Positions 10,747 through 59,860 of a stretch of 64,000 bases of DNA are shown piece by piece. The DNA lies in IMG/VR virus record IMGVR_UViG_3300042868_013692. One strand, given 5' to 3'. Under the pieces are notes generated by a model. The model had not been told where the DNA came from. It did not search any database and saw only the letters and a list, made by a program, of their open reading frames with translations. Every line of letters starts with the position of its first letter. Positions within the stretch are counted from its first letter, which is position 1. Origin of the DNA: an uncultured virus (IMG/VR IMGVR_UViG_3300042868_013692) (taxonomy: Duplodnaviria; Heunggongvirae; Uroviricota; Caudoviricetes). The position numbers were made by a program, and so were the translations under genes.

Positions 10747-11555
10747 GTATTACAGACGTATTACAAGAATTTTAGACATAGGTGCGTACTTGCATAATTT
10801 TTTGATTTTAATCAAAAATAAAATTGGGAAGATGATCACTTTCTTATAGGAAAATGCCCTTTTTTCTTTGCATCTTCCCTTTACTTTTGACACACCTTAT
10901 GTTATAATCCGCCACAGATTTTTTAACGAGAGAATGCGGGTTTGAGGCGTGTTACAAGATTGGGATTTTATCGGCGTTAGCCCAGGCTGGGAACGAATGT
11001 CTGTTTTGCCGGTTTGGAGACGGCTGCGGGGAGCGATCGCTAAAAACACAAAACCCTTGCTGTGCGGAGATTGCAATATGTTTTTATCGCCAAGGCTGGA
11101 CAGATTTTAGGTTTTATGTCCGGTGGCACGGGCGTTAGTAGGGCGTTGGTGCAAATGGTTGGTTTGCGGCTTGGGGGGGACGGCTGCGGGGAGCGATCGC
11201 TAAAAACACAAAACCCTTGCTGTGCGGATATTGCAATATGTTTTTTGTCGCCAAGGCTGGACAGATTTTAGGTTTTTAAGCCGGTGGCACGGGCGTTGTT
11301 AGGGCGTTGGTACAAATGTTTGGGTTGTGGGGGACGGCTGCGGGAAATATTACCAAAAGCTGAAACCATTACTGTGCGGGGATTGCAATATGTTTCTTGT
11401 CGCCAAGGCTGGACAGATTTTAGGTTTTTAAGCCAGTAACACGGGCGTTGTTAGGGTGTTGGGGCAAATGTTTGGTTTATAGTTTTGGGTCGGCTGCGGG
11501 GGAAATATTACCAAAACACAAAACCCTTGCTGTGCGGGGATTACAATATGTTTTT
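10747..11555 (+). repeat. dispersed element copy 1: ~270-bp leader plus 4 tandem ~157-bp units (last partial)
   Basis: CGGCTGCGGG core at 11021, 11181, 11335 and 11491; leader shared with five other loci. Confidence 0.95.
10880..10908 (+). promoter_or_regulatory. promoter inside the repeat-element leader
   Basis: TTTACT-17 bp-TATAAT with extended TGn -10; kept in all copies (TTGACT in copy 3, TATACT in copies 2 and 6). Confidence 0.7.
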
Positions 11556-11571
11556 CTCCCAAAAGACATAA

Positions 11572-11610
11572 ACAAGCAGCACCATAAAATTAATTTATGG
11601 TGCTGCTTGT
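11572..11610. terminator. bidirectional terminator-like inverted repeat
   Basis: ACAAGCAGCACCATAAA...TTTATGGTGCTGCTTGT between the array and a convergent ORF. Confidence 0.7.
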
Positions 11611-11625
11611 AATTCTTGCTTATTA

Positions 11626-12462
11626 CTAACCTTCAAAGTCTGGATTGACCCACGCTCCTCTAACTCGAACTGGCTTAATATCTTTTCTTCCTTCCCCACA
11701 GGGCTGCAATCTCCAATGATGCGAACGATAGTGCTTTGATTTTTTTGCCGTTTCCTTTTGTCCTTCTCCCCTCTCGGTTATCCTGTTGTTGGTTTTTTCG
11801 TTGCCTAACCATCTTGGAAATCTATATTCTGATGGTTTTGCCATACCAAATCCCCTTGATTGTGTCGGGCTTTTCATTTCTTGCTGGATCTCTGGATAAT
11901 ATTGCAACAATAATATTGACTGCAAAACAATATTTCTAACTAAAAACGCTGCATCCTTTTCAAGTCCTGACAGAATAAATGGCGATTGCTTTATAGTTCC
12001 ATCCCACCTGATGCCCTTACCAGAAAAAAGTAATGTGTTATTTGAGTCGAAGCACCCCCAAAAAATTAAATACTTGTATTCGTTGTTTTCGCTGTTCTTG
12101 ACATCATTTTCGACTATATCAACTATTAAATAGTCAATAAATCCGTTCCCCACTGGTGATTTTATTGTGGATTCTGGGAAACATAGCAAATACGTTGGTA
12201 CGCCCAAGTCAATGTTTTTAAACAGCGAAATATTATCACCAACATCAGTTTCTAACATCTCTTCAATTAGCGATCGGCGCACACAATAAACTGGATAACC
12301 GACAAACCATTTTTCATACAAGTAAGCAAGGTTTTTACCAACATTTATGTCATTTGTTAAATCGCAAGGTTTTTGTGCGGACAACAATGATATTTTGTCT
12401 GAGTGGTCTAAAAAGTTCGCCCATTTTATATAATCCTGTGGCAATTTGTATGGCTTTATCAT
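11626..12462 (-). CDS. hypothetical phage protein
   Basis: 278 aa; C-terminal HYRSHHWRLQPCG...VRGAWVN motif of a type seen in phage proteins. Confidence 0.8.
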   Translation of the reverse strand: MIKPYKLPQDYIKWANFLDHSDKISLLSAQKPCDLTNDINVGKNLAYLYEKWFVGYPVYCVRRSLIEEMLETDVGDNISLFKNIDLGVPTYLLCFPESTIKSPVGNGFIDYLIVDIVENDVKNSENNEYKYLIFWGCFDSNNTLLFSGKGIRWDGTIKQSPFILSGLEKDAAFLVRNIVLQSILLLQYYPEIQQEMKSPTQSRGFGMAKPSEYRFPRWLGNEKTNNRITERGEGQKETAKKSKHYRSHHWRLQPCGEGRKDIKPVRVRGAWVNPDFEG

Positions 12463-12922
12463 TGTATTTTTGTATTGTGTTTTTACTGTGTCTTGTTTTG
12501 CTTTTTATACGTAAACTTTTTGTCCGTCGTCTAAGTACAAGAATCTACTTTGTTCCATGATTTTACCATATTGATTTTACAAAATCAATATGGTAATTAT
12601 ATTGATTAAATATTGCTAAAATTGGAATCGCGCATCTTAACTGAAAGTCCAAGTGCAAAAAACAAAAACATGGACACAAAATTTGTGCCGTTTCGCAAAA
12701 TAAAATATGTTGCTTGCGAGTTGTGCGCTTTTGCGAATATTTGCAGCAACTCACAACAATAAATGTAGACGCGAGCCATAAAATATAATTTACGCTTTTT
12801 GATGTGTCGCAACTGATTTTTAATTTATAGAATTATCCAGAAAAAAATATTTTTTTAAAATAAATAGCAACAGAATGATATACAATATATTTTGAACACA
12901 GTTTAATCTATTTAGAATTTTT

Positions 12923-13572: not shown

Positions 13573-13869
13573 CAAGAGGAAAGCGGTAGCGTTGGGAGCT
13601 TCGCGTCTTCAGACCGAAGGGGAAAACGCACACGGGCGAATTGATTCGCCTTCAATATTGTGTTACAATTAAGTTGTCAGTACAAGACACAAAAACCTAC
13701 CGGGGGACTCTCGGAAAGTATACGCTTGTCAGATATGATTTCGCCCTTTGGGCAAACGAAGTCAGGGCAAGAACCCAATATTAAGGCAATGTCTGAAACT
13801 GGGATAACTGAGGGACATAGACTGAACCCCTCTATAGAATCTGCGTCTCTTTAGAGCGCAGAGTGTCAA
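13573..13869 (+). mobile_element. non-autonomous IS200/IS605 derivative (no TnpA or TnpB) retaining both ends and an omegaRNA-like region
   Basis: Left hairpin CTTCGCGTC-TTCA-GACCGAAG; TACCGGGGGACTCTCGGAAAGTATACGCTTG scaffold-like motif; right hairpin TCTGCGTCTC-TTTA-GAGCGCAGA then GTGTCAA. Confidence 0.7.
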
Positions 13870-13928
13870 ACCCCGCCAACTCAACAGAACTTAACCAAAC
13901 TTGAGCCTGATAATTGGGGTCAGAAAGC

Positions 13929-14174
13929 CTAGTCTTGCGGCTTATTTTCTTCTACTAGAGGTTCAATATTCGGCTGATTTTTGCTTTGCTCAAACCAAGC
14001 AACGCAAGATTCTAATACCGAATAAGCAACCCAACCACTATCTGTTAATTGGGATTGAGTTCTTACATTGTGTGCGTTTCTTGTCTTGGCTATACCTTGT
14101 ATTAATTCTTCTTGTGTTAAAGTAACACCTTCAGAATTTGTGTACTCATTGGGAATCTCAATCTTGATAAGCAT
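13929..14174 (-). CDS. small protein following a tail-fibre-like gene
   Basis: 81-aa ORF coupled to the upstream gene (TAATG overlap). Confidence 0.7.
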   Translation of the reverse strand: MLIKIEIPNEYTNSEGVTLTQEELIQGIAKTRNAHNVRTQSQLTDSGWVAYSVLESCVAWFEQSKNQPNIEPLVEENKPQD

Positions 14175-15556
14175 TAGTAGGAAACCTCGTTAAATTGTAA
14201 TGTACAGTTGACTCTAATAGTTGTGGATGATTGTCCGGTAAATTCTACTTTTAAACAACCATTAGTTGTGTCCGCAGAAATAGTAACAACCCAAGAACTT
14301 GCACCGCTATCTTGGGATATCAAAGTAGTCGTAACTAAACCCACTAAAAAAGTAGCAGCAGCATTAGCACCTCTTTTTATTAATCCTTTAAACTCCCAGC
14401 AAGAAGAATTGCCACCATTTGTTATTGCCGCTACTATTCTACCACTAAAAGCTAAAGTAGAATTGTTGCTTAAAGTTAGCTGGTTGGTTGTACCTGGTGC
14501 ATTTGCGTCAGAAGTTAATGTCGTTATTGTGGCATTTGTTGTTTGCTTTCCTAATACTAGAAAACCTGCTTGGTATTTATCTTGTAGTATGTTTTGTGGG
14601 AGTAATAGCACTCCAGATATACTTCTACTATTACTATTTGAAAAAACAACCGAATCTATACCATTAGATGTAGCGTTTTCTCCCAAAGCTATACTATTGC
14701 TACCACTAGCTGTACTATTTTTCCCTACCAGAAATGAGTTACCGCCACTAGCTACTTGAGACGCTAAAAGCCTTTGTAGCTGTAAATCAATAGCTCTAGT
14801 TCCTCGCGCATTACCTCCAGTAGCGGTATTGTCAGGGGTTTGGGTTACTAACGCGCCTGTATTACTGGGGGAAATTATTAAATTTGTATCCCAAGGCGAC
14901 CTGATTCCCTTACTACATTCAATTATCTGTTTACTAAAAGTGACACCGTTTGAGTATCTGAAACTAGAAAGAGAGTAAAATGAAGTAACAGTGGTATCAA
15001 TACTGGAAGTATTTAAAGGTGTAAATTCATTATCTGGTGAATTGAAAACGAATTTAACTGTATAAGGATACCCACCATTACCTTGCCCTGCAAGCCTAAA
15101 AAATATTTTGTAGATGCTAATATCATATTTCACTTCTAACCAGCACCCCTCATGTCCGTAAAAACCAACTTCTTCCTGAGCATCTAGTCTTTGCCAAGAA
15201 CCTGTAAATCCTGTAGCATAATGCCAGTGAAGATTATATATTTTCGCGCCTCTATACTCGCGGAAAATTTGTATTTGTACAAAATCTGATACTCCTGAAA
15301 ATGATCCTAACTCAATTACCGTGTTAGAAACGTTAGGCATAGTGCCAGAAACGTAGCTCACTTTTGATTGGCTATACCATGTATCACCATTCCAGTAAAA
15401 ATCTGTTCCATTAGCAGAGTTATACCATCTATCTCTAGCCACTAAACCACTACCATCAGGTCTAGTAGTTGGTTTAGTGCTTTGATTTATATAACACACA
15501 TTATTAATTAAAGCCCCATTTGGAATAATGCTGGGGGACACGTAAATCATTCCCAT
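14174..15556 (-). CDS. tail-fibre/virion structural protein
   Basis: Gly/Ser/Thr/Asn-rich; TGGNARGTRAIDLQ and YadA-like ASGSNSIALG repeats. Confidence 0.75.
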   Translation of the reverse strand: MGMIYVSPSIIPNGALINNVCYINQSTKPTTRPDGSGLVARDRWYNSANGTDFYWNGDTWYSQSKVSYVSGTMPNVSNTVIELGSFSGVSDFVQIQIFREYRGAKIYNLHWHYATGFTGSWQRLDAQEEVGFYGHEGCWLEVKYDISIYKIFFRLAGQGNGGYPYTVKFVFNSPDNEFTPLNTSSIDTTVTSFYSLSSFRYSNGVTFSKQIIECSKGIRSPWDTNLIISPSNTGALVTQTPDNTATGGNARGTRAIDLQLQRLLASQVASGGNSFLVGKNSTASGSNSIALGENATSNGIDSVVFSNSNSRSISGVLLLPQNILQDKYQAGFLVLGKQTTNATITTLTSDANAPGTTNQLTLSNNSTLAFSGRIVAAITNGGNSSCWEFKGLIKRGANAAATFLVGLVTTTLISQDSGASSWVVTISADTTNGCLKVEFTGQSSTTIRVNCTLQFNEVSY

Positions 15557-16206
15557 TATTTATACCTCACTTCTGCATAAATTGGAGTTATTGGTGCTAT
15601 TGTTGAACTGTCAGCAAGTCCAGTTACACAAGCAATAGAAATACCTGTAGAAAACACTTCTTGAGGAATCAACGAAGCTTCAAGAAAGTTAATGCCTGGA
15701 TTACTAGCACTACCGCCAGGGACAGCTTGAGTTAGCAAAACAGGAGAAATACCCACAGTTACGTTAGTTGCCAAATTGTAAAACTTTACATACACAGTTA
15801 CAGAGTTAGTATTGATAAAGTTCCACCCCATAACCAAGCCGTCAGAAGCTTTTACCTGTACAGCAGTATTAGTTAATGTTGGATTTCTGCTAGTTAAGTA
15901 TCCTGACTCGGCGGCTAAATCTACAGGGATTCTTCCATTAACTGAAATTGGTATTTCGTTTCTCAATAAAGAAAAAATGGAAAATAAAATTCCCAATAGT
16001 GTTTTTGGTGAATTATTGTTATAACTACCAGAACTAATTTCCTCCAAAAATGGGGCTGGTACTTCACTTTCTTGAACTTCTTCAACAAAATTATCAGACA
16101 GCAACGCACTAATCTCTTCTGGAGTTGCATAAATGTGTTCTCCGAAAGTGAAATATCTATTGTTGTACGACACTTTTCCACGAATAACTTTATAAAAATT
16201 TGACAT
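15556..16206 (-). CDS. probable virion structural protein
   Basis: 216 aa, beta-rich C-terminus, coupled to the tail-fibre-like gene. Confidence 0.65.
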   Translation of the reverse strand: MSNFYKVIRGKVSYNNRYFTFGEHIYATPEEISALLSDNFVEEVQESEVPAPFLEEISSGSYNNNSPKTLLGILFSIFSLLRNEIPISVNGRIPVDLAAESGYLTSRNPTLTNTAVQVKASDGLVMGWNFINTNSVTVYVKFYNLATNVTVGISPVLLTQAVPGGSASNPGINFLEASLIPQEVFSTGISIACVTGLADSSTIAPITPIYAEVRYK

Positions 16207-16445
16207 ATCTTAATTCTTTTATTTTGGCATATTCTTTTAGTCTAAACCATCTGTGATTATTTTAACAGATGCCGACGAGGAGCTTTAGCGTCTTTCTACA
16301 CAAAATTGCACTATTATATTTAATTATCACCACGAAAGACATATTTAAAAACCCTGCACTAAGTTTTACGAAGTGCAGGGTTTTTATGTAATTAGGAGTA
16401 TTCCATCAAGTACACTATACACGATAATTGTGTGCGCCACAATTA

Positions 16446-16961
16446 TCAATCTCTTGTCAAATTATTTTTGACTTCTTTGATAATTGAATCGTCAGGAATC
16501 CACAATCCCTGGTGTCCTTTTATGGGGATAGGCTTTGTTAAGCGATTAGTGTTTGATAATTCCCAAGCATATCTTCCTGCTTGCCAATTACCGCATAGCC
16601 ACTCCAAGAGAGGTGGTCTTTCTCCATTTATAAAAGCATCATCATTGTCTCCATTGTTAGCTGTCATTTGATCACAATTAGTTAAGTCAACCACACAAAG
16701 AACTTTACCCAATGGCAAATACTCTGTGTAAGTTGTGTTTACGCCAAGAAAATCCAACCTCCTCCTATCAAAAGCCCCTATATCAGTTAAATCAAAAATT
16801 TTGTTAATTAATTCGCTGTTTGGTACATATTTCTTTTTAGTAGAGCAGATTAAAAGCTTGCCTCTATATTTTGTACTCCATGATCTCGTCTCACGTTTTT
16901 TAATCTCCAATGCAATAAGAGATGCCCAGGGTTGGTGCAGAGAAATTGCTTTGTATTCCAT
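16446..16961 (-). CDS. ASCH-domain protein
   Basis: KAISLHQPWASLI..KKRETRSWSTKYRGKLLI...PIPIKGHQGLW. Confidence 0.9.
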   Translation of the reverse strand: MEYKAISLHQPWASLIALEIKKRETRSWSTKYRGKLLICSTKKKYVPNSELINKIFDLTDIGAFDRRRLDFLGVNTTYTEYLPLGKVLCVVDLTNCDQMTANNGDNDDAFINGERPPLLEWLCGNWQAGRYAWELSNTNRLTKPIPIKGHQGLWIPDDSIIKEVKNNLTRD

Positions 16962-17281
16962 TTATTTAATCCTAATTCTGATTTGCGCTAAATTTAGACA
17001 AGTCGTTTCTACAATTGGCAGGGTTCTTCAGTTTCTTTTTTATAATCTATATCAGTCGCTGCCATCAATTTGGCATTCATTAAACTCGTGTGCAGCAAAT
17101 TCCCTGGTAAAGAAATCGAAGGCTTGAATTCTAAATCTGTAGCTTTTGTAGATTTTTCAAGAAGTTCTAATTCAGATTCGATAAGTTTTTTGCTTCTATC
17201 AATGCTTTTTTGTATTGTCTGATGTATTTTTGATCAATCATTTTTATAATTTCCCTGTGCTGCTTACTAATTCCTGTGTTT

Positions 17282-17310
17282 ATAATACTATGGCTAACAA
17301 ACAAAGTCAA
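17282..17310 (-). promoter_or_regulatory. conserved phage promoter
   Basis: TTGACT-TTGTTTGTTAGCCATAG-TATTAT. Confidence 0.8.
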
Positions 17311-17333
17311 CCCTGCTTTCAAAATCATTTTTA

Positions 17334-17755
17334 TATTACAAACGTATTACAAGAATTTTAAATACAGGTGCGTGTTTGCATAATTTTTTGATTTTAATCG
17401 AAAATAAAGTTGGGAAGATGATCACTTTCTTATAGGAAACTGTCCTTTTTTCTTTGCATCTTCCCTTTACTTTTGACACGCCTTATGTTATACTCCGCCA
17501 CAGATTTTTTAACGAGAGAATGCGGGTTTGAGGCGTGTTACAAGATTTTGATTTTGGCGACATTGGAAAAGGCTGGGTGCAAGTGTCTGTTTTGCCGGTT
17601 TGGAGACGGCTGCGGGGGAGCGATCGCCAAAGCTGCCAGCCTTACTGCGCGGGGATTGCAATATGTTTTTAGCAGTAAAACTGGGTATCCATTGGGCTTT
17701 CTGCCTATGGTGCGGGGCGTTGGCGAGGCGCAAAGGCTTCGTTGCGGGTTGATTA
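17334..17755 (+). repeat. dispersed element copy 2: leader plus 1 divergent unit
   Basis: Same leader (GGGAAGATG...CATCTTCCC, promoter) and GACGGCTGCGGGGGAGCGATCGC core. Confidence 0.9.
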
Positions 17756-17795
17756 GGTTGGCACTCAGTAACATGGAAAATATCTAAAAATAGGG

Positions 17796-17824
17796 TTGAC
17801 TTTGGGTGTTATCCATAGTATTAT
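17796..17824 (+). promoter_or_regulatory. conserved phage promoter
   Basis: TTGACT-TTGGGTGTTATCCATAG-TATTAT. Confidence 0.8.
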
Positions 17825-17853
17825 AGATAAAGAAATAAAAACCAAGAAAGCAA

Positions 17854-18246
17854 ATGCAAACCGAATTAATTAACTTATCTACAGGACTAGAAAACGTTTT
17901 TCCTCCTGATTGGGCTATGTTGTACGACCCAAAAACAAGATATAAAAAACTTGTCGAGGTTGTAAAAAAAACAAAAACACAAATTACCATCAAAGGAGAA
18001 ACTAAATACAATATCTCGAAAGGAATTACCATTAATGGAGAAACTAAATACAATATCTCGACAGGAAAAATAGTGCCAAGCAACCCAAATCATGCTTATT
18101 TACTAAGAGCTTTAACACTAGAGGAAATTGATGACATTGGCCGATTAGAAGCAAGAGAGTTTATTATTTGCGATATCAAAGAAAACCTTCATTCTTTAGA
18201 TATTGATTCCTTGACAGAAATGGCTAAAGCTTATTTTAGTGACTAG
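17854..18246 (+). CDS. hypothetical protein with an internal 42-bp duplication
   Basis: ITIKGETKYNISKG-ITINGETKYNISTG. Confidence 0.75.
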   Translation: MQTELINLSTGLENVFPPDWAMLYDPKTRYKKLVEVVKKTKTQITIKGETKYNISKGITINGETKYNISTGKIVPSNPNHAYLLRALTLEEIDDIGRLEAREFIICDIKENLHSLDIDSLTEMAKAYFSD

Positions 18247-18526
18247 ACATCATTAAAACGAGAAAAAAAGAGCATAAAAGAAACCAAAGAACAAGTGTAA
18301 AGCTAATGAACAGAGAAACAGAAATAAAGTTTCAAGCAGCTACCAGTAATAAGATATCTTCTTTTGAACTTTCAGCGATTACTGAAATGGTGGCTAATGA
18401 AGAGTGTTGAAGTATTAGATAGTAGCCAGATACTAGAAAATATGTTAGACCCCAGAAATATATCTAATTCTCCTGGAGACAGAGTACGTAAACGGGTTGA
18501 ACTGTTAAAGAAAGAGGAAAACTAAA

Positions 18527-18799
18527 ATGATTATTTGCCTAATAGAAACCTATAAATACTCGTGGGAGGGTCAAGGTGAGATGTACATAATAGATACCTC
18601 TCTATTGAGTTCTGAACCTTTCAGGTCGTTTCTAGAGTCTGCACCAAGCTCGCTATATATTGGGGATGGAGAGTTTTGCACAAGCGAGAAACTAGGCTGG
18701 AGTTGGCAGTATGAGTCAGATATTCAGAGAGCAGTAGTGAAACCGCCGCAGCTAGTTGAGAAGTTAGTATCAGTAACGTTTGATAACCTAGCAGAATAA
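18527..18799 (+). CDS. hypothetical protein
   Basis: GAGG RBS; followed by a hairpin terminator. Confidence 0.7.
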   Translation: MIICLIETYKYSWEGQGEMYIIDTSLLSSEPFRSFLESAPSSLYIGDGEFCTSEKLGWSWQYESDIQRAVVKPPQLVEKLVSVTFDNLAE

Positions 18800-19268
18800 A
18801 GCCCATAAGAGTTTATCTTATGGGCTTTAGCAGAAGGGTACAAAGAGGAAGTCTATAACTTAATAACCCAGCTTAGGTTTGAACACCAGGAGTTAACAGA
18901 ATACTTCAACAACAAAACCTAAAACAGGAATAAAACAATGCTTAACGAATTAAAGGAAATTCTGTATTCAGTGCAGCTAGTAAGACAACTGCTTGGTGGT
19001 AGTTGGTATCTTGTAGCTGACTACAACAGAGACAAAGCTGTGTGGTCTACAAAACCACCGGATGGCTATCAAGTTCTAGATGTAGAAGAATGGGTTTAAG
19101 TCTACAATATCAACATAAGTAAGAGGAAACAAATATGCCCCTGACAAAACAACTTGAAGATTTATTCTCAGAATTAAACGCAAATCCTTCCCCTACCTAC
19201 AGCCAGCTAAAGGAGGAAAATTAGGAAATGTTAAAGCAGATCAGAATTGGCTTGATGGCAACCGCTTA

Positions 19269-19550
19269 GTGTTTAGGAGCGCAATTTCGGAAGTTTTAGA
19301 TTGCTACCAAACTGACTCGCTCATTAAGAATACAACAGATCTACTAGATAAAAACCTTGGACATTCTAACTGGATAGAAGATATCGGAGAAAACCCAGAA
19401 GGAACTGCTGAAGCTTATACCAAGTTGTATAAAGACTTAGACTTAAACAAGTTTTGGACTCAAGTAGGACTAACTGTAACTGTAGGAGAGAACTGTAGGG
19501 TTGCTACTGAACAACCAGAGGATGATTGTTTTATAGGGAATAGACAATGA
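19269..19550 (+). CDS. hypothetical protein
   Basis: Stop overlaps the next ATG (ATGA); start uncertain. Confidence 0.55.
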   Translation: MFRSAISEVLDCYQTDSLIKNTTDLLDKNLGHSNWIEDIGENPEGTAEAYTKLYKDLDLNKFWTQVGLTVTVGENCRVATEQPEDDCFIGNRQ

Positions 19551-20635
19551 AGAGAACTGAAGTTGAACAAAGAGCAATCTTTATAGGTTTAGCTGGTAGT
19601 CATGGTTATGGTTTAAACCGTCCCGAATCAGACTACGACTATCGAGGTGTGTTTATTGCCCCGAAGTCCTACTATCTAGGATTTAATACCATTGAGCAGA
19701 AGGATGCTGGCTGGGATGAACCAGGGCTGTTTCCTTTTATAGATGGCAATGAAGACACTGTAATTTATGAGTTAAGAAAAGTTACTCAATTACTGGCTAA
19801 TGCTAACCCCAACGTCTTAGAGCTGCTATGGCTAACAAACTACCCCTTCAAGAGTGAAGTTGGTCAGCATCTGATAGACCACCGTGACCTCTTTCTCAGC
19901 AAGAAGGTAAAGCATACCTACACAGGTTACGCATTTGCTCAAATTAAGAAGATAGAAACTCACCGCAAGTGGCTTCTAAGCCCACCTAGCAAACAGCCTC
20001 TCCCGTCAGACTTTGGTATTACTAATGAAGAACCCTTATCAAAAGAAGAGCTAAACGCGTTCTTAGAATATCTTTACTTGTTAGTGAGAGGCAAAGTTGA
20101 GTACCTGGAAAAGTCGGAAGAGTTATACAAGCTCCTCACTGCCGATATTGACTTTAAAGGTCTGTTAAAACAGCACCCTCTACCTGACGACACTCTAGAG
20201 TATACAGAAAAGCTGACTTATGGGCGTAAAGACTTTATCAGACTTCTTCAGAAGAGCCAGGGCTACCACAACGCTTTAAGAGAATGGAATGCTTATCTAT
20301 CCTGGCAGAAGAATAGAAACCCTGCTAGGGCTGGTATGGAGCGGCTGGCTGGCTATGATCTTAAACACGGAATGCACTGCATTAGATTGTTAAAAGGTGG
20401 TGTAGAGATTCTGCAGGGTAAGGGAGTCTTGGTTGACAGAAACCTGGCTGGTGATGCTGCTGAGTTAAAGGCTATCTTAAAAGGCGACTACTCCTATGAG
20501 GAACTAAAACAACTGTCAGAAGACCTGCTTGCCCAGATGATTGTAGTGTACGAGCAATCAACACTGCCCCACCACCCTAACCAAAACAAGATTAATGACC
20601 TGTGTATGGAACTAGTAGAAATGCAAGGTTGGTAG
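19547..20635 (+). CDS. Pol-beta superfamily nucleotidyltransferase (YcgL/RlaP-like)
   Basis: GSHGYGLNRPESDYDYRGVF (hGS...DxD), ANPNVLELLW, GYDLKHGMHCIRLL. Confidence 0.88.
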   Translation: MKRTEVEQRAIFIGLAGSHGYGLNRPESDYDYRGVFIAPKSYYLGFNTIEQKDAGWDEPGLFPFIDGNEDTVIYELRKVTQLLANANPNVLELLWLTNYPFKSEVGQHLIDHRDLFLSKKVKHTYTGYAFAQIKKIETHRKWLLSPPSKQPLPSDFGITNEEPLSKEELNAFLEYLYLLVRGKVEYLEKSEELYKLLTADIDFKGLLKQHPLPDDTLEYTEKLTYGRKDFIRLLQKSQGYHNALREWNAYLSWQKNRNPARAGMERLAGYDLKHGMHCIRLLKGGVEILQGKGVLVDRNLAGDAAELKAILKGDYSYEELKQLSEDLLAQMIVVYEQSTLPHHPNQNKINDLCMELVEMQGW

Positions 20636-21010: not shown

Positions 21011-21082
21011 GTCCCTGTCGAACATTGGTTAGTTCACTAGGTTTTCATCCTAGCAAAGAGAGTTCGATCCTCTCCAGGGATA
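21011..21082 (+). tRNA. tRNA-Glu(TTC)
   Basis: GTCCCTG...CAGGGAT-A; anticodon arm CTAGG-TTTTCAT-CCTAG; T arm GAGAG-TTCGATC-CTCTC. Confidence 0.9.
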
Positions 21083-21240
21083 CTTCTCGTATAACGAAAA
21101 ACAGCACTACACTGAAGTTGTGTGGCTCCATGCCAGCAGCCAATGTAGACACAGAATGGCAAAGCTGTGAACAGAATAAAGCCCGGTAGTTTTCTCACCC
21201 TAGCAGCAATGCCTGAACAACTAGGAGTTTAACGTTAGCA

Positions 21241-21266
21241 TCCTTTGTGGTGTAAGGGAAAGCACA
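21241..21266 (+). pseudogene. 5' tRNA fragment (acceptor strand plus D arm) abutting tRNA-Asp
   Basis: TCCTTTG-TG-GTGTAAGGGAAAGCAC-A with no anticodon or T arm. Confidence 0.5.
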
Positions 21267-21337
21267 GGGGCTATAGGTTAATGGTAAACCCTAAGATTGT
21301 CGATCTTAAGTTGGGAGTTCGATCCTCCCTAGCCTCG
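21267..21337 (+). tRNA. tRNA-Asp(GTC)
   Basis: GGGGCTA...TAGCCTC-G; TAAGA-TTGTCGA-TCTTA; GGGAG-TTCGATC-CTCCC. Confidence 0.9.
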
Positions 21338-21358
21338 TTCTAGTTAGCTAGAAGTCAT

Positions 21359-21432
21359 TCCCCTGTAGCTCAGTTGGTTAGAGCGCGAAACTGTTAATTT
21401 CGATGCCGCACGTTCGAGTCGTGCCGGGGGAG
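21359..21432 (+). tRNA. tRNA-Asn(GTT)
   Basis: TCCCCTG...CGGGGGA-G; CGAAA-CTGTTAA-TTTCG; GCACG-TTCGAGT-CGTGC. Confidence 0.93.
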
Positions 21433-21454
21433 TTTTAAACCTAGGCTGGTATTA

Positions 21455-23515: not shown

Positions 23516-23548
23516 GTTAGTTGATTTTTGTTTTTTCTTTATTCTTGT

Positions 23549-23577
23549 ATAATACTATGGTTAACAAAGAAAGTCAA
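23549..23577 (-). promoter_or_regulatory. conserved phage promoter
   Basis: TTGACT-TTCTTTGTTAACCATAG-TATTAT. Confidence 0.8.
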
Positions 23578-26004: not shown

Positions 26005-26428
26005 TGTTTTGCGTTTTTAATGTTTTATTGTCTATATATAATATACTATTTTTTAGAAATAAAAGCAAGTCATTTTTTAAAATATTTTACCAATTTTAAA
26101 AAGAAATTACTAAATTCTACAAGGCTGTTTTGCGGATAAAAATTATTTTAGCTTGGGGTTAAACTTTGTGTGCTTCTAGCTTCAATAGATTGTTTTTTAT
26201 TATGCGGCTAAAAGTGCGATGCTTACCAAGGTTTCAAAAAATGTTTCTTTTTTGGTAGCGTTTCATAAAAAATAGGGCGTTCCTCTAAATTTGAAAAAAG
26301 GCTCTCTTGGAAGCAATACCCTCTAAATGCATCTCTAAAGTACATTTTTAATTCGTCACGTGGGGTGCTTATAGGCGATCGCCTATAAGCACAAAAAAAG
26401 ACCCGTCGTAACAACGAGTCTTTCTGAA

Positions 26429-26818
26429 CTAGGTGGTTCGTCTTGCTGGTCTAAGAAGTGCAGATTGATAGGTGGTTCGTCTTGCTGGTCTAAGAAGTGC
26501 AGATTGAAGCGCAGCTTCTTTTTCCGATGAAATCCATCCATCTCTTTCTAGATCAGATAGATCCCTGAAATTCGTGTTGATCACCCACGTTCGATCTGGA
26601 ATGTCGAACGTGGACAATCCTTTTTGCCCAACCATGTCTTGTGACAGGACGAAGAACCCAAACTTCTTCCTCCAAGTCGTCAGTCCACACTTGGACAAAA
26701 CCTCCACTTCCCACCCATTTAATCGGGCTTGCTCTAGTTTGAGGTTTTTATTCCGTTCAAGATCCGCCAACGCGGATTCAACTCGCTGTCTATTAAAATA
26801 GTATTTATTGATTGTCAT
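26429..26818 (-). CDS. hypothetical protein with a 39-bp C-terminal duplication
   Basis: QSALLRPARRTT occurs twice; behind a conserved promoter. Confidence 0.75.
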   Translation of the reverse strand: MTINKYYFNRQRVESALADLERNKNLKLEQARLNGWEVEVLSKCGLTTWRKKFGFFVLSQDMVGQKGLSTFDIPDRTWVINTNFRDLSDLERDGWISSEKEAALQSALLRPARRTTYQSALLRPARRTT

Positions 26819-26860
26819 TTTTTCTCGCTTGTTTTGTGTTTTGTTTTTTCTACTTCACTT

Positions 26861-26889
26861 ATAATACTGTGGTTAACAAATAAAGTCAA
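26861..26889 (-). promoter_or_regulatory. conserved phage promoter
   Basis: TTGACT-TTATTTGTTAACCACAG-TATTAT. Confidence 0.8.
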
Positions 26890-26912
26890 GCGGTATTTGA
26901 AAATCATTTTGT

Positions 26913-27403
26913 ATATTACAGGCGTATTACAGGTTTTTTATCTAGGTGCGTACTTGCATAATATTTTTATAAAAAAGGAAAAAATATTTGGGAAGATGTG
27001 CATTGTTTCTTTAAGGAAATGCCATTTTTATTTCACATCTTCCCTTGACTTTGGTACGCTCACTATGATATAATCCGCCCCAAATTTTTAACAGTAAAAT
27101 AGGGGTTTGAGGCGTGTTACAAGATTTTAGTTTTATGGGGCATTATCCAAAACTGGGAACGAATATCCGCTTTATGATTTTGGGAATGTCTCCCCGCAGC
27201 CGACCCAAAGACAGAAGCCTTGTTATGTGGGGATTACAATATGTTTTTGTAACAAGACTGGGCATCCGTCGGGCTTTTTTGCCGATGGTGCTGGGCGTTG
27301 ACGTGGTGTGAGTACAAATGCTCGTTTTATAATTTTGGTGCGGCTGCGGGGGAAATATCGCTAAAACACAAAAGCCTTGCTGTGGCTAGATTGCAATATG
27401 TTC
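26913..27403 (+). repeat. dispersed element copy 3 (most divergent): leader plus about 1.5 units, first core inverted
   Basis: GGGAAGATGTG...CACATCTTCCC; TTGACT-18-TATAAT; CCCCGCAGCCGAC at 27192 versus CGGCTGCGGG at 27341. Confidence 0.9.
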
Positions 27404-27561
27404 TACCGACAAAAAACCCCAACTTCTGCCTGTGAATGCAGCTTTGTTTGTTGTTTTGATAATTTCATTTTGCTTGTTTTTTGTGTTTAAAGTTTGTCAA
27501 CTATAAACACAAAAGTAGCGTGTGATAGTTGATTATTTTATGTTTTAAACCAAACTTTATT

Positions 27562-28685: not shown

Positions 28686-28706
28686 GCGCATTTTTGATTT
28701 ATTTTT

Positions 28707-40644: not shown

Positions 40645-43600
40645 ATGGGGAACTTTACTAGCATCGGCAAAAACTGCCCAATATGCAACGGAAGAAAAAA
40701 ACGCTGCTCCACTTTAAGCGATTCACTTTCGCAAGTAATCCAATATCACTGCAGAGAAAATATTGAGCTACCAAACTACAAAAATCTCGGTCTTTCATCC
40801 ATCGGCTTCTATATGTATAGTCCGATAGATATTGATGGCGAACAAAATCAATACAAAAACACAGAAGAATATATTCCAACAATCTCCCAAGAGGAACGCC
40901 AAAAAGCGCGAGAAGTAGCAGAAAAAGAAGCATTTCTTGCTGAGGAATATCATAAAAACAGAATTTCACAACAATTAAGCCCAAAACAGAGGCACATTGA
41001 GTACGCAAAAATGCTCAAATCAATGAGCATAAGTGACATACATAAAGGACACCTAAACGGAACAAGAGGTTTTTTACACGAACAAATAGAAATCAATGGA
41101 TACAGATCGGTTGGCAAATTTGAAGCCGTAGATCCATCTATATCCCCAAAAACTCCTGGTATTTTTGTAAACTACCTGGGAGAAACGGTAATAAATTATG
41201 GCGGGAGGGGGATTCTCCTTCCTGTACGCGACCTAGATCAAAACATCGTCGCATTTCAAATTCGCAATACCGAAACACAGAAAGACAAAAATAAAAGTGG
41301 CGAAGACTTCGGCAAGTACCTATGGTCGGGATACCCACAAACACTTAAAACAGGCGCTGAAAATAAGCGTCTGTTTTATCCAAGCATACATTTACCAGAG
41401 AATGGTGAAAAACCTCTTCATATCGCAAATCCGCACAACCTTAAAGATGTTGAAATGCTATATCTGGCAGAAGGTGTATTAAAGCCAGATATAGCAGCAT
41501 ACAGATTTGAGCAGGCCATTGTAGGTTCTCCTGGCGGATCGTGGTACTCCTCACCAGAACAACTTTTTGCAGCTATCAACTACTTTAACACAAGAAATGT
41601 TGTTTTGTATGCTGATGCAGGGGCGATTATAAATTCTAATGTGATCACGATCTACAATCGGGTCAGACAATTACTTGAGAATGAGGGGATTGACTTTAAA
41701 ATCGCATGGTGGGGTCAAATTGCGAAAACTGAAAGCAAATTTTTACAAAGTGGTCCACAATTTTCTGACATTGACGAGCTTGACGGATTCCATCCAGGAT
41801 TTGGTCACAGTAAGCCAGACTTTGAAAAAATCCAATATCTAACATGGGATCAATGGATAGATTTGGCGTATTCAGAAGAAATTATCGCCAAAAGACCCAA
41901 AAAAGATTTTAAAACTAATTTTGTAAAAGAATCAGAGGCAAGAGAAAGCCTACAGGAACTTATAGATGGCGTAAACGGAACAAAAAACAAGGCGAAATGG
42001 TGGGAAAATTACAAAAACCTCACCCAAAGAAAAAAACCAATCTTTGCTGCGGAAAAACCAGACAACATTGAATTGCCAGTATTTGATCAATCAATTATTG
42101 ACGATTTTGCATTCGGATCAGAATTTGAGGAAGACAGAAATTTTACCCCAAGGCAAGATGATGAGAGTGAATCATCTTGCCATGAAGAACAAAAAGGAAA
42201 AAATACGGCAGAAAACAATGCCGTAAACTTTGACATATCTGACAAGAAAAAATTCAATACCTGGAAGCGCAGAATTGAGTACACACCAACCCATGAGTTC
42301 AACGATCCATACGTAAGCATTGATCGCAAAATAGAGGCAAACAGCATCTACACAATTAATTCTGGATTAGGGACAGGGAAAACTTGGTGGGCTTTAGAAA
42401 TGCTCAAAGAAATGGATGCGCCATTCCTCTACGTCACCTTCAGAAATTCCCTTTGTGAGCAATTCATCGAACAGTGCAAAAAAAGAGGCATTGAATGCTC
42501 ACACGGGAACGAAAGCGGCTTCAAATACCAAAATGACACACAAGTTTTCCAGGGCATGGCATTCTGCATTGACTCTTTACACAAGGTTTCCCTACCAAAT
42601 CTTGACGGCAAAATCATAATCGTGGATGAGTCGTTCAGCACGATACAGGAGATGATGACCAAGAAAAGCCTAGAGAAAGGCAGAGTTAGGCTGCTTGAAT
42701 TTTTCAAGGAATCTCTTAAAAAATGTGCTGCCGCAATCTTCATGGATGGTCACTTAACAGACAGCCTTGCTGACTATGTACATCAACTCGCGCCAGAGAA
42801 AAAAATAATCAAATACAAAAATAACTTTCAAGGAAGAAAGTTTGATATCACTTTTGTTAATGGATCTTACGACGACATAGCCAGCGACTATTACACCCAA
42901 GAAGAAATAAACGCTGGCACGAGTGAAAACGGCGAGAAAATTAAAATAAAGGTGCGCGATCGCTCACCTGTTCTAAATGCAATCAACAACTCAATTGGTA
43001 ATATCTGTATTGCAACAGATAGCTTAAACCAATCAATGTCCCTAAACCAAAGGCTAAAAGACCAGGGAAGATTCGGGCTTGTTGTAAACAGCATCAGCTA
43101 CAGGGAAAACTGGCTTTTATGCGCTGCCGATCCAGAGTCATCGGTGCAAAACTTCATCAAAGATGTAGACGGGTTTATTGAAAAATACAAACTCGAATAC
43201 CTGATTTACACCCCAACAGCAGAGGCAGGGATAGACATCTCTATCCACAAACGCATACCTAACTACTTCACTCACCAATACTGCCTATTCTTTAACGTAA
43301 TTGGTACATTTGGACAATCGCAAATGATCGCTCGATTGCGTGACCCAGAATGCCCACGAACAGTTTGGCTGTACCCACACCCAATGGGTACAGACTACGA
43401 GTACACAGGATGCTCAACCAAAGAGTATAGAAACATATTCCTGACGCAACAAAAAGCATACTTAATTCAGATGCGAAAGGATGCTGAACTTCAAGGGACA
43501 CCAATCAACGAAGTACAAATGCTTGTTGAAGCTTCAAAAAAAGTTGTTGAAACAAGCACTTTTGAAGAGATTCACTCAACATTATGCTCCGATTTAATTT

Positions 43601-44826
43601 TAAAAATTAAATATGAGAAAAGTGAACCTCGCGGGTGCTTGTTAAACATTCTAAAAAGCTCTGGACATAAAATTTTAGAGGTAGCACTTTTAGAGTCCAA
43701 GCAAGCTACAGAACTCAATAAAGAGGCTTCTGATAATTTCAAAAAAGAAGAATCCGCAAATATAGCACAAGCAGAGGTGCTAGACTCCAAACAATATGAT
43801 CTGGAATCGGCAAAAATAAATATATCAAGCGCGACAAGATACAATCTTGAGAAAACTGGCATCAACTTCATAGTTCCAGGTATTACAGACAAATCTATAT
43901 GGGATGCAGATTTTGTCTATCACGTAAAATATGGCGACAGGGCATTTTTAAGAGGGCAAAATAGATTCTACCTCTTCAACAACCAAGATGCCTTGATGAA
44001 GTATGAATTGAATAGACATAAAAACAACGTTTCCTATGCAATATTTAGCAACAAATACGAAAGCGTGACATTTGATGTAAACAATCAATATACACAAATC
44101 AGGCTCTTACAGGAAAGCAACATCTCTTGGTTTTTAAATCCAGATAACAATTGGTATGTAAAAAATGAATGGTTTGATGATTTTAATGGCACAAAATTTA
44201 TTAATAAAAGCAATGACCCAGTAGCACAAAAAGTATTTGATTTCTTGATATTTTTCAACAAAAATTTAGAAATTTTTGGTAAGCAATTCCCAATCAAGAA
44301 AACAGCAAAATCAAAAAACCCCGCATCGGCAGCCACAAAACAAATCATAAAAATTATTCAATGGCTGGGGCTAAAAGTCAAATCCAAGAAATCAAGCGGA
44401 TTTAAATACTCGATTGATCTGCAATCTTTCAGCCCATATCACCAAGCTTGCCAAGATTGCCTCAAGGTCAAGTATAGCGATATCAAAGTACAAACAATAC
44501 CCGACACAATTATTGAGAAGGGAGCGACGGTGTTCAACCTAGAGGTTGAACCCGCAAAAGAGCCGGACAAAGACTACAAATACACTTATCCATACGAGGT
44601 ATTTAAGGCTTTAGAGGTGGTATGGCAAGATCAATACAGCATTTACGCCATACTCCAACAATCAATGCCAGCGGTAGTTTCTGCACTAGTTTCCATACCC
44701 AACAGCTTCTACGGCACGACATCAGCGAACTATCTGAAAGATATCATTACCTGGGGTAACAAAAATCTAGCGAAGCCTGACGAGAAAGTGACGATAATAG
44801 AGAACGAAAAAGTCCCAATTGCTTAA
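40645..44826 (+). CDS. large replicase: Zn finger, Toprim-like primase and SF2 origin-binding helicase (CyRepA1-like)
   Basis: CPICNG; LAEGVLKP...YADAG...IAWWGQ...DIDE; SGLGTGKT; IIVDE; YTPTAEAGIDI; QMIARLR. Confidence 0.8.
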   Translation: MGNFTSIGKNCPICNGRKKRCSTLSDSLSQVIQYHCRENIELPNYKNLGLSSIGFYMYSPIDIDGEQNQYKNTEEYIPTISQEERQKAREVAEKEAFLAEEYHKNRISQQLSPKQRHIEYAKMLKSMSISDIHKGHLNGTRGFLHEQIEINGYRSVGKFEAVDPSISPKTPGIFVNYLGETVINYGGRGILLPVRDLDQNIVAFQIRNTETQKDKNKSGEDFGKYLWSGYPQTLKTGAENKRLFYPSIHLPENGEKPLHIANPHNLKDVEMLYLAEGVLKPDIAAYRFEQAIVGSPGGSWYSSPEQLFAAINYFNTRNVVLYADAGAIINSNVITIYNRVRQLLENEGIDFKIAWWGQIAKTESKFLQSGPQFSDIDELDGFHPGFGHSKPDFEKIQYLTWDQWIDLAYSEEIIAKRPKKDFKTNFVKESEARESLQELIDGVNGTKNKAKWWENYKNLTQRKKPIFAAEKPDNIELPVFDQSIIDDFAFGSEFEEDRNFTPRQDDESESSCHEEQKGKNTAENNAVNFDISDKKKFNTWKRRIEYTPTHEFNDPYVSIDRKIEANSIYTINSGLGTGKTWWALEMLKEMDAPFLYVTFRNSLCEQFIEQCKKRGIECSHGNESGFKYQNDTQVFQGMAFCIDSLHKVSLPNLDGKIIIVDESFSTIQEMMTKKSLEKGRVRLLEFFKESLKKCAAAIFMDGHLTDSLADYVHQLAPEKKIIKYKNNFQGRKFDITFVNGSYDDIASDYYTQEEINAGTSENGEKIKIKVRDRSPVLNAINNSIGNICIATDSLNQSMSLNQRLKDQGRFGLVVNSISYRENWLLCAADPESSVQNFIKDVDGFIEKYKLEYLIYTPTAEAGIDISIHKRIPNYFTHQYCLFFNVIGTFGQSQMIARLRDPECPRTVWLYPHPMGTDYEYTGCSTKEYRNIFLTQQKAYLIQMRKDAELQGTPINEVQMLVEASKKVVETSTFEEIHSTLCSDLILKIKYEKSEPRGCLLNILKSSGHKILEVALLESKQATELNKEASDNFKKEESANIAQAEVLDSKQYDLESAKINISSATRYNLEKTGINFIVPGITDKSIWDADFVYHVKYGDRAFLRGQNRFYLFNNQDALMKYELNRHKNNVSYAIFSNKYESVTFDVNNQYTQIRLLQESNISWFLNPDNNWYVKNEWFDDFNGTKFINKSNDPVAQKVFDFLIFFNKNLEIFGKQFPIKKTAKSKNPASAATKQIIKIIQWLGLKVKSKKSSGFKYSIDLQSFSPYHQACQDCLKVKYSDIKVQTIPDTIIEKGATVFNLEVEPAKEPDKDYKYTYPYEVFKALEVVWQDQYSIYAILQQSMPAVVSALVSIPNSFYGTTSANYLKDIITWGNKNLAKPDEKVTIIENEKVPIA

Positions 44827-45017: not shown

Positions 45018-45150
45018 GCTGAAACCCCTATTCTCTCGTTAAAAAATCTGTGGCGGATTATAACATAAGGCGTGTCAAAAGTAAAGGGAAGATGCAAAGA
45101 AAAAAGGGCAGTTTCCTATAAGAAAGTGATCATCTTCCCAACTTTATTTT
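45018..45150 (-). repeat. dispersed element copy 5: leader core only, inverted, no units
   Basis: Reverse complement matches the leader from AAAATAAAGTTGGGAAGATG through TATAATCCGCCACAG to GAGAGAAT. Confidence 0.92.
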
Positions 45151-49003: not shown

Positions 49004-49032
49004 TTGACTTTTTTTGTTAACCATAGTATTAT
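49004..49032 (+). promoter_or_regulatory. conserved phage promoter
   Basis: TTGACT-TTTTTTGTTAACCATAG-TATTAT. Confidence 0.8.
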
Positions 49033-49070
49033 AGACATATAAACAAAAACACAAAAAACACAAAAATACA

Positions 49071-57653: not shown

Positions 57654-57655
57654 AA

Positions 57656-59113
57656 TCAGAAATCATTATTCATTACACAATACAAAATGTTGTCGCATGC
57701 AAACGAAGATATAATATCAACGCCATCAATCGTAAATTCTGGAACTAATTTATTTGCAAACTTAAAAACACTTGGATCTAGTGTTAAGTTTCTGTCAAAA
57801 CTATCTGAAAAAAACATAAAAATATAGCTCGCGCCTTGTACAAAATTTGTGCAAGTCAAGAAAGCATTAGAAAGATTTAAATTCACAATAAAGATATTGT
57901 TTTTGCCTAAATTTATGGACGTATTCGCTACTAGAGTGACGTTTACAATTGAAAATGGCGCAGAATTTAAAACTCCCAATACGTTTATTGTAAAATCATT
58001 GCCGACAATGATACCACCAAGTGTTGATGTTGTGGCAATTGGTATGTCTAAATTAATATTGTCCTGGATATAATTTATGTCAACGGCAGTTAAGCCAGTG
58101 GCATCAACATCAAGCCCGTTACCGACAATGATACCACCAAGTGCTGATGTTGTGGCAATTGGTATGTCTAAATTAATATTGTCCTGGATATAATTTATGT
58201 CAACGGCAGTTAAGCCAGTGGCATCAACATCAAGCCCGTCGCCGACAATGATACCACCAAGTGCTGATGTTGTGGCAATTGGTATGTCTAAATTAATATT
58301 GTCCTGGATATAATTTATGTCAACGGCAGTTAAGCCAGTGGCATCAACATCAAGCCCGTCGCCGACAATGACACCACCAAGTGTTGATGTTGTGGCAGGA
58401 ACTAGGCCTCCACCTCCGTTGAATATTAAGTCAACGGGTATCCATTTTGAGCGATCGCTTGGTAATATGCCAACAATTCCATCATCTCTGCACACATAGC
58501 GGAAACCATTGTAAAGAACGGTATTTCCGACTCTGTATAGCTGAGTCCCGCTATAGTTTGATGTTGGAATTACTATTTCTAACATTGTCGCTAAAAATGC
58601 GGGATCTTTTTTAAGAATGTCTGCCACTTGCTTTGCCGTTTGAGGAGTTCTATCGTTCCAAAATCCAGTTTTTTCTAGGTCTGCAAAATCAACAGAATTC
58701 TTGTTGGGTATGGCAGCATAAAAAACCGGTTCTACCTCTACCTCTTCTGTATTGGTTTTCTTGTTTAAATGTATACTTTCATTTGTCCAAACATATCCAA
58801 CATAATATTCGTTTTCGTGAAGAATATACGGCAACTCGCCATCGTAACCATAGAAGTCACCATTGTCATAGTAAAAAGAGTTCGTGGTTGCTTTCTGAAA
58901 AATAGAAAAACTGTAAACCTGTTTTCTAGTTTCGGATTCAGGAAGTTCTAGTGAAAATCTTCCATTTATAATTTCGGCATCAAACTGAAGGGGAAGTGAA
59001 ACTTTTTTTGGAGACTGAACACCGGAAATTAGCGGCTGTAAAAGCTGAATTCTCAGAAAGCCGTTTATTGGATTTGACCCAGCATCTGCTATGTTTCCGC
59101 TTAAAAGTGTCAT
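57656..59113 (-). CDS. tail-fibre/baseplate-associated protein with 40-aa repeats
   Basis: PIATTSALGGIIVGDGLDVDATG repeats; YRVGNTVLYNGFRYVC module. Confidence 0.78.
   Translation of the reverse strand: MTLLSGNIADAGSNPINGFLRIQLLQPLISGVQSPKKVSLPLQFDAEIINGRFSLELPESETRKQVYSFSIFQKATTNSFYYDNGDFYGYDGELPYILHENEYYVGYVWTNESIHLNKKTNTEEVEVEPVFYAAIPNKNSVDFADLEKTGFWNDRTPQTAKQVADILKKDPAFLATMLEIVIPTSNYSGTQLYRVGNTVLYNGFRYVCRDDGIVGILPSDRSKWIPVDLIFNGGGGLVPATTSTLGGVIVGDGLDVDATGLTAVDINYIQDNINLDIPIATTSALGGIIVGDGLDVDATGLTAVDINYIQDNINLDIPIATTSALGGIIVGNGLDVDATGLTAVDINYIQDNINLDIPIATTSTLGGIIVGNDFTINVLGVLNSAPFSIVNVTLVANTSINLGKNNIFIVNLNLSNAFLTCTNFVQGASYIFMFFSDSFDRNLTLDPSVFKFANKLVPEFTIDGVDIISSFACDNILYCVMNNDF
58002..58397 (-). 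repeat. 120-bp tandem coding repeats (about 3.3 copies)
   Basis: CCGACAATG recurs at 58002, 58122, 58242 and 58362. Confidence 0.95.
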
Positions 59114-59164
59114 AAATATAAAATTATTTGTAAAATTATTATATTATTTTAGCGCAAAATTATC

Positions 59165-59515
59165 ATGGTAGAAAGAGCAACACCAAAATATCCAATACAG
59201 GTTTCAAATGGCAGAATTATGCTTTCTACAGGAACAGATATTGAGAAGGATGCCATATTTAGCGTACTGGAAACAAGACAATATGAGCGTGTTATGCGAC
59301 CACTTTCCTATGGAACTAAAAGCTATATTTTCGATACAACCTCTGCTACATCTGTAATACCCGCGAGGGTTGAGGTGGCACTGCGATCGCAAATACCAAA
59401 CCTTAGTAAAATCCAGGTCACCGGAAGCTTTGATGAAAGTGGTGTTCAACAATTAAAAATTTATTGGGAGGACAAGGATTTTAGGAAAAACGATCTCAAG
59501 CTATCTGTCTCTTAG
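59165..59515 (+). CDS. GPW/gp25-family baseplate wedge protein
   Basis: IFSVLETRQYERVMRP.SYGT motif. Confidence 0.8.
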   Translation: MVERATPKYPIQVSNGRIMLSTGTDIEKDAIFSVLETRQYERVMRPLSYGTKSYIFDTTSATSVIPARVEVALRSQIPNLSKIQVTGSFDESGVQQLKIYWEDKDFRKNDLKLSVS

Positions 59516-59522
59516 TTTCGTG

Positions 59523-59860
59523 TTACAGACGTATTACAAGAGTTTTAAATACAGGCGTGTGTTTGCACAATATATTGATTTTAATCAAAAATAAAGTAAA
59601 GGGAAGATGATCACTTTCTTATAGGAAACTGCCCTTTTTTCTTTGTATCTTCCCTTTACTTTTGACACGCTTTATGTTATACTCCGCCACAGATTTTTCA
59701 ACGAGAGAATGCGGGTTTGAGGCGTGTTACAAGATTCGTGTTTTGGCGGCATTGTGACAGGTTGGAAGCGAATGCCAGTTTTGTGGTTTTGGGGACGGCG
59801 TTGGGGAGAATGCAACTAAAACCGGAAACCTTGCTGTGCGGGGATTACAATATGTTTCTA
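59523..59860 (+). repeat. dispersed element copy 6: leader plus a partial divergent unit
   Basis: Leader with extended inverted repeat AAAGTAAAGGGAAGAT/ATCTTCCCTTTACTTT; CCTTGCTGTGCGGGGATTACAATATG. Confidence 0.9.

Follow-up and report, generated by a model that had tools for sequence, protein, structure and literature searches.

The T4-type phages RB49 and phi1 carry about 50 promoter-early stem-loops (PeSLs) per genome, each a sigma-70-like promoter combined with a stem-loop terminator, and recombination between PeSLs has produced indels between related phages (Arbiol et al. 2010, PMC2839356). Phage PhiTE escapes the ToxIN system by expanding a non-coding repeat from 1.5 to 4.5–5.5 copies (PMC3475682). 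The replication origins of T4, at least five of which are active, pair a promoter with an unwinding element downstream of it, where a lasting R-loop forms (PMC3016281). Here we describe a family of non-coding elements in a 64,000-nt stretch of DNA from an uncultured virus (IMG/VR record IMGVR_UViG_3300042868_013692), hereafter the window. Our tentative reading is that each element is a mobile cassette of terminator and promoter, similar to a PeSL, to which a repeat array has been joined, and that it would work in cis to insulate operons and to provide a substrate for recombination.

Six copies of one shared leader occurred within the window, five of them preceding 1–4 repeat cores and the sixth, on the minus strand, consisting of the leader core alone (Table 1). 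A repeat search placed a 300-nt leader at 10692, 17278, 28652 and 59467, with the latter three copies 82%, 93% and 66% identical to the first, and shorter repeat families located a diverged fifth copy at about 26838. The inverted 132-nt core was 94–96% complementary to four leaders. These results confirmed the recurrent leader and inverted core that a model had reported earlier from the letters alone (the sequence-only reading). Its unit numbers (4, 1, ~1.5, 4, ~0.5 and 0) kept their pattern in our motif scans, which gave 4, 1, 2, 4, 1 and 0 cores, but its six-member family proved too small, as we counted 12 elements over the window and the related records G001 and G002. Ten element loci were matched in the sister record G001 by BLAST (E = 0 to 1e-22). 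Five further elements were found in G001, namely G72 (2 units), G74 (1 unit, without the promoter core), G81 (6 cores), G93 (core only) and G116 (1 core), and one more with 3 units lay at the end of G002. The 132-nt core was thus found alone, without units, at two sites (W5 and G93).

Read in the direction of the array, the leader contained the operator-like words GTATTACAG and CGTATTACA, a weak promoter-like site (P1), a hairpin, a second promoter (P2) and the word CGTGTTACA. All promoter and terminator calls are predictions from sequence. The pattern CGTRTTACA occurred 11 times in the window, 11/11 inside elements and paired 190–193 bp apart, and the −10-like GCAYAAT of P1 was kept in the other leaders. 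The leader hairpin was the sole part of the element with a folding signal (z-score −3.22 on the plus and −4.21 on the minus strand, equalled by 0/200 shuffles) and belongs to the 132-nt core, which was 94–96% identical between copies. The sigma70-type promoter that the sequence-only reading had seen facing the units held up as a prediction in both W1 and W4, and to that promoter we added the putative bidirectional terminator and the second, weaker promoter. The leader words resemble the HLR1/RpaB site, given as (G/T)TTACA(T/A)(T/A) (PMC6525291), but in the upstream pair the spacer is 3 nt instead of 2 nt and the first position is an A, and we make no claim of such a site.

Table 1 Elements of the window, parts of the W1 element and copies of a neighbouring promoter family (ORF, open reading frame).
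Feature	Position	Strand	Description
W1	10735–11615	+	Leader, 4 repeat cores, end hairpin; flanking ORFs both on opposite strand
Left operator-like words GTATTACAG, CGTATTACA	10747–10765	+	CGTRTTACA scan
P1	10771–10798	+	Weak upstream promoter-like site TTTAGA-16-CATAAT; 9/12 matches
Leader hairpin GGGAAGATG...CATCTTCCC	10826–10879	both	A and T runs at both sides; predicted bidirectional intrinsic terminator, from folding z
P2	10880–10908	+	Predicted extended −10 promoter TTTACT-17-TGtTATAAT, aimed into array; 10/12 matches plus TG
Right operator-like word CGTGTTACA	10948–10956	+	~33 nt after predicted P2 start
W1 array	11019–11555	+	3 full units, then terminal core; G 31.9%, C 17.3%
W1 end hairpin	11572–11610	both	17-pair stem between W1 array and convergent gene 11626–12462; scored on both strands
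W2	17320–17785	+	Leader and 1 unit; inside 6.5-kb stretch missing from sister record G001
W3	26900–27425	+	Diverged leader, 2 cores; GGCTGCGGGG block of first core inverted (27192–27204)
W4	28695–29575	+	Leader, 4 cores
W4 P2	28840–28868		Predicted TTTACT-17-TATAAT with TG; 10/12 matches
W5	45019–45150	−	Hairpin and P2 core, no units; faces 3′ end of 1393-aa gene
W6	59515–59875	+	Leader, 1 core
30-bp promoter family	8024–8053, 17281–17310, 17796–17825, 23548–23577, 26860–26889, 28656–28685, 32769–32798, 49004–49033, 59931–59960		9 copies

Units started about 100 nt past P2 and were 140–161 nt long over the family. Tandem Repeats Finder reported a period of 152 (3.4 copies, 85% matches) in the W1 array and of 159 (3.6 copies, 90% matches) at 28965–29533 in W4, and motif scans showed GACGGCTGCGGGG, CCTTGCTGTGCGG and ATTRCAATATG recurring in register across units. 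Core-to-core periods were 160/152/158 in W1 and 159/159/157 in W4, so the 154–160 bp given by the sequence-only reading covered most periods and missed one of W1. Its proposed constraint to about 15 helical turns was not kept: strict phasing is rejected by a flat GG autocorrelation and by periods of 140 and 152, with A/T tracts recurring at ~31–32 bp in the arrays. Six of ten arrays (W1, W3, W6, G74, G81, G116) ended just past a ~65-nt core running from GACGGCTGCGGGG to ATTRCAATATGTTT. Hairpins came after several arrays, and the terminator-like one noted earlier behind W1 scored on both strands. In the first unit of W3, a ~23-bp segment holding GGCTGCGGGG was inverted in place and formed a 7-pair inverted repeat with a downstream TGTGGGG.

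Tandem direct repeats with a fixed period, each with a short palindrome, also make up the arrays of iterons and those of plasmid centromeres, F sopC among them, but these have periods of about 17–43 bp, sit at one locus beside their rep or par genes and are not known to have a promoter directed into the repeats. The stoperators of cluster A mycobacteriophages resemble our elements in that one oriented non-coding site is scattered, in many intergenic copies, through runs of genes, but they are single 13-bp repressor sites rather than 0.3–1.2-kb modules with their own promoter. Likeness to PeSLs lies in a sigma-70-like promoter joined to a terminator stem-loop and repeated among small genes of unknown function. 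PeSLs directly precede an ORF with a Shine-Dalgarno sequence and start codon, whereas P2 pointed into non-coding DNA in 11/11 elements; the core here is also much longer, and most copies carry tandem ~158-bp units. ToxI and the phage-borne pseudo-ToxI share a promoter, non-coding tandem repeats and a terminator with the elements, and the PhiTE array likewise changes its unit number; however, ToxI units fold as 36-nt pseudoknots and the host array is succeeded by a toxin gene (PMC3475682), whereas the units here are ~158 nt, with no fold signal, no toxin gene behind them and no host look-alike found. A ToxI-like array was rejected on its unit length (140–161 nt against ~36-nt pseudoknots) and its missing fold and covariation signals, together with the absence of any endoribonuclease toxin match in Pfam and the finding that genes downstream of arrays are convergent or unrelated. 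The T4 origins oriF and oriG combine a promoter and a non-coding downstream element at several sites of a ~170-kb genome and need a transcript on the DNA to function, but their unwinding elements are ~50 bp and A+T-rich with little sequence shared among origins, in contrast to G-rich tandem repeats (PMC3016281).

Strains of the phage differed in unit number at two loci. The W1 array was shorter by ~280 bp (nearly two units) in L053, and the G116 locus had at least 2 extra units in L049. L047 was without 26119–27311, a segment with small ORFs, the W3 leader and its first unit; the junction lay inside the unit tail GTACAAATG, and the opposite edge, ACAAGGCTGTTTTGCGG, resembles that tail. This sole positive comparative evidence points to recombination at units, in which the elements would resemble PeSLs. 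A further indel involved the 6.5-kb stretch 13777–20269, which was missing from G001, was present at 100% identity in the metagenome contigs L048 and L054, and held element W2, an ASCH-domain gene and a gene for RlaP, an RNA-repair-associated nucleotidyltransferase.

Of 11 elements, 7 lay antisense between two opposite-strand ORFs, 2 were sense and 2 lay where gene direction switches. RNA evidence consisted of assembled contigs, which do not give the strand, from three metatranscriptome runs (X18 and X19 of one study, X20 of another). Contigs of a G116-type element ran from the flanking gene through half a unit and the leader to the window equivalents of 10893 (X19) and 10835 (X20), both upstream of the predicted P2 start and within or just short of the hairpin. 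Such ends fit a gene transcript stopping at the hairpin, or a P1 transcript. The W1 units and gene 11626–12462 were without an RNA contig, and missing cover and contig depth are unusable as evidence.

In the insulator and recombination reading, which we favour with reserve, the core of the cassette would be a strong bidirectional hairpin terminator directly before the near-consensus extended −10 P2, the two bracketed by the paired operator-like words ~191 bp apart, and most cassettes would have gained 0.5 to 6 tandem ~158-bp G-rich units downstream of P2. The hairpin would halt transcripts arriving from neighbouring genes, and P2 would fire, mostly antisense to the neighbours, into non-coding DNA until the next terminator, so that the module would insulate adjacent transcription units. 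Near-identical cassettes and unit arrays would offer substrates for homologous recombination, through which arrays may lengthen or shorten and strains may come to differ by the gain or loss of small gene cassettes. The P2 RNA appears unstructured and would be short-lived, not a folded product. With the same reserve, the elements would together form a phage-specific family of cis-acting intergenic modules.

Several observations weigh against this reading. Unit sequence does not drift freely: compared between loci, identity was 91% in the GGCTGCGGGG block and 82% in the 3′ core (linker 75%, pre-core 66.5%), but 48% in the 12 nt that separate these two conserved blocks. Such a pattern speaks for sequence-specific recognition, for which neither insulation nor recombination alone accounts. 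A single indel junction was seen in a unit, and the edges of the 6.5-kb indel between the window and G001 held no element sequence and no repeat. Unlike PeSLs, 0/11 elements had an ORF directly behind P2. RNA contigs also spanned the P2 region, and so neither prove nor place P2 activity.

Tests for a coding or structured product were negative. No ORF was common to the copies, the unit periods were not multiples of 3, and small ATG-led frames shifted with the length of T runs, which rejects a coding reading. Rfam found 4 transfer RNAs (tRNAs) only over the window and nothing above noise over W1, where the best score, on the end hairpin, was 27 bits against a gathering score of 55. The 766-nt W4 transcript folded like shuffled sequence (z −0.04 on the plus and +1.42 on the opposite strand), as did three single units, the leader and the W5 transcript (z −0.93 to +1.06, leader +0.25). 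RNAalifold on 22 units yielded 10 pairs at −4.66 kcal/mol in a single helix with 0 compensatory changes, no better than column shuffles. Folding, alignment and pair counts being all negative, we rejected a structured non-coding RNA. The imperfect unit folds and the structured or processed RNA suggested by the sequence-only reading thereby fell away, and its description of the elements as non-coding and promoter-headed stood, with P2 a prediction.

Other identities fared no better. A clustered regularly interspaced short palindromic repeat (CRISPR) array would have repeats of ~24–48 nt with unique spacers, whereas here the whole ~158-bp unit repeats and the only variable stretch, ~12 nt, takes few recurring variants. 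A restriction-site decoy was rejected because the arrays contain none of the 6-bp palindromes that the genome avoids. Two exact patterns, the only means by which cyanobacterial genomes were searched, gave 0 matches and 1 match among 185,579 species genomes, the latter in a Clostridia metagenome-assembled genome and within estimated chance; no inverted ends were reported either, and we rejected a miniature inverted-repeat transposable element (MITE) or host repeat family. At exact-pattern stringency, then, the element is not a host repeat family. The sequence-only reading had named such a family as the match that would count against it, and no credible match was found; its judgement that the elements are no transposon, MITE or CRISPR array and fit no named family was likewise borne out by these searches and by Rfam. 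BLAST of the elements against phage and plasmid records found nothing, and scans of viral and metagenome sequences returned strains of this phage alone. At four loci from distant relatives (helicase or RecJ, 26–33% protein identity), no long-period tandem repeats occurred within 13–22 kb; closer helicase relatives exist (74–77% and 48% identity).

Conservation of the two core blocks keeps three rival readings alive. We think it rather doubtful that the arrays are genes for a trans-acting repeat RNA, with P2 making a G/U-rich multivalent transcript that serves as sponge or decoy, a defence nuclease being one conceivable target; each unit would present one conserved bipartite 65-nt core to a host or phage RNA-binding protein, and unit number would be selected as in the pseudo-ToxI of PhiTE. 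A dedicated and highly conserved predicted promoter, operator-like words and the lack of a downstream ORF suit such a gene, as do the hairpins after several arrays, the conserved blocks around a variable 12-nt stretch and the strain differences in unit number, and escape from ToxIN by non-coding repeat expansion is a precedent (PMC3475682). Yet the units show no fold or covariation signal and, at ~158 nt, are far from the 36-nt pseudoknots of known antitoxin RNA, the two exact patterns revealed no host RNA to mimic, and no nuclease gene lay behind any array. The same conserved blocks, held at a fixed spacing (motif A to motif C, 49–52 bp), could instead be read in double-stranded DNA. On this account, which we regard as unlikely, the units would be binding-site arrays for a phage or host protein, whether iteron-like for an initiator, centromere-like, for packaging or as transcription-factor decoys, with transcription incidental or regulatory. 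The cores hold a palindrome, ATTGCAAT, as well as a directly repeated word, GCTG(N)CGGGG, whose two copies are ~36 bp apart; W3 tolerates the in-place inversion of its GGCTGCGGGG block, A/T tracts are regularly spaced, and among the phage genes are those for HU, for an FtsK-type translocase and for a protein whose helicase region resembles that of the herpesvirus origin-binding protein. Twelve dispersed loci would nevertheless be unusual for an origin, centromere or pac site, the 140- and 152-bp periods break strict phasing, and neither a ParA/ParB pair nor an initiator gene adjoins the arrays; array orientation relative to P2 was also always fixed, though common descent could explain that.

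Least probable to us is that the arrays are transcription-activated elements prone to R-loops or G-quadruplexes, whose G-rich P2 RNA would stay on the template and prime many origins or trigger recombination like switch regions. The non-template (plus) strand of the arrays was indeed G-rich (G 32–35%, C 16–17%), 6/11 of the window's G4Hunter blocks of at least 1.4 lay in elements, with a peak of 1.96 at unit junctions, and so did 4/8 plus-strand G4+N1-10G4+ sites; the RNA is unstructured, and the promoter with a downstream R-loop element at T4 origins is a precedent. Those T4 unwinding elements are A+T-rich, however, not G-rich (PMC3016281). The G content is moreover modest, the first units after P2 were without the strongest G clusters, and the best-conserved block, ATTRCAATATGTTT, is A/T-rich and unexplained by an R-loop model. 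Only at long odds, then, would the modules be a new phage element in which regulated promoters transcribe G-rich repeats into R-loops or hybrid G-quadruplexes, making a dozen transcription-activated sites at which replication and recombination would start.

A second repeat family lay close to the elements. Its 30-bp promoter, TTGACTTTnTTTGTTAACCATAGTATTATA, had a conserved spacer and occurred in 9 copies where 0 were expected. Behind every copy came an A/C-rich leader of ~20–35 nt and then a start codon, and 5/9 copies adjoined an element. It is probably the early promoter class of the phage, and is a closer counterpart of PeSLs than the elements are. Array RNA as an antisense regulator of the 9 A/C-rich 5′ leaders was rejected: the duplexes averaged −23.9 in energy, compared with −21.8 when units were shuffled (z −1.5), and random 60-nt window targets paired better with the array RNA (−31.7).

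The window belongs to a freshwater cyanophage of ~165 kb. Outside 13777–20269 it was 99.5–99.8% identical to G001 (an IMG/VR record of 138 kb, rated 83% complete). Pfam identified genes for an FtsK-type ATPase, RecJ, three helicases, HU, clamp-loader subunits and a Dam-class methylase in the window, and a Mu-type portal, baseplate proteins and further methylases in G001 only; the replicon is a phage and not a plasmid, which the sequence-only reading had allowed for. GCGATCGC occurred 35 times against 0.8 expected, an excess that is a hallmark of cyanobacteria. The phage is widespread: of 24 listed public runs, 20, spread over 12 studies, contained its DNA, and most of these carried freshwater or lake metagenome labels. 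G001 and the window avoided 6-bp palindromes: ACATGT, AGTACT and CATATG were absent against ~44 expected each, as were at least 11 others (e.g. GGATCC, CTCGAG, GAGCTC), which points to heavy host restriction pressure. The tRNA genes Glu, Asp and Asn were clustered at 21011–21433, with tRNA-Met apart at 3713–3785. The 1393-aa protein encoded at 40645–44826 resembled, in residues 565–733, the helicase part of the herpesvirus origin-binding protein (Pfam E 9e-9) and had no relative among phage records. Among the structural genes, a 533-aa protein (L029 6156–7757; G001 126156–127757) had a C-terminal ADP-ribosyltransferase domain (Pfam E 5e-10). Tandem repeats also occurred in frame within genes, 120 bp × 3.3 in a 485-aa ORF and 102 bp × 2.6 in a TPR protein gene (58001–58397 and 6702–7007), and the 120-bp array varied in length between strains.

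A non-coding module takes up roughly 6 kb of the ~165-kb phage genome and fits no described family. If its arrays are only a substrate for recombination, they would widen the PeSL concept, that of mobile regulatory cassettes in coliphages, to include cyanophages, in a new repeat-bearing form. Were a protein to recognise the conserved 65-nt cores, or R-loops to arise from the transcripts, the phage would instead have a new type of decoy RNA, site array or multi-origin system. The R-loop reading, if true, would bring together the logic of T4 R-loop origins and that of immunoglobulin switch regions, in a system by which accessory gene cassettes would be gained and lost as well.

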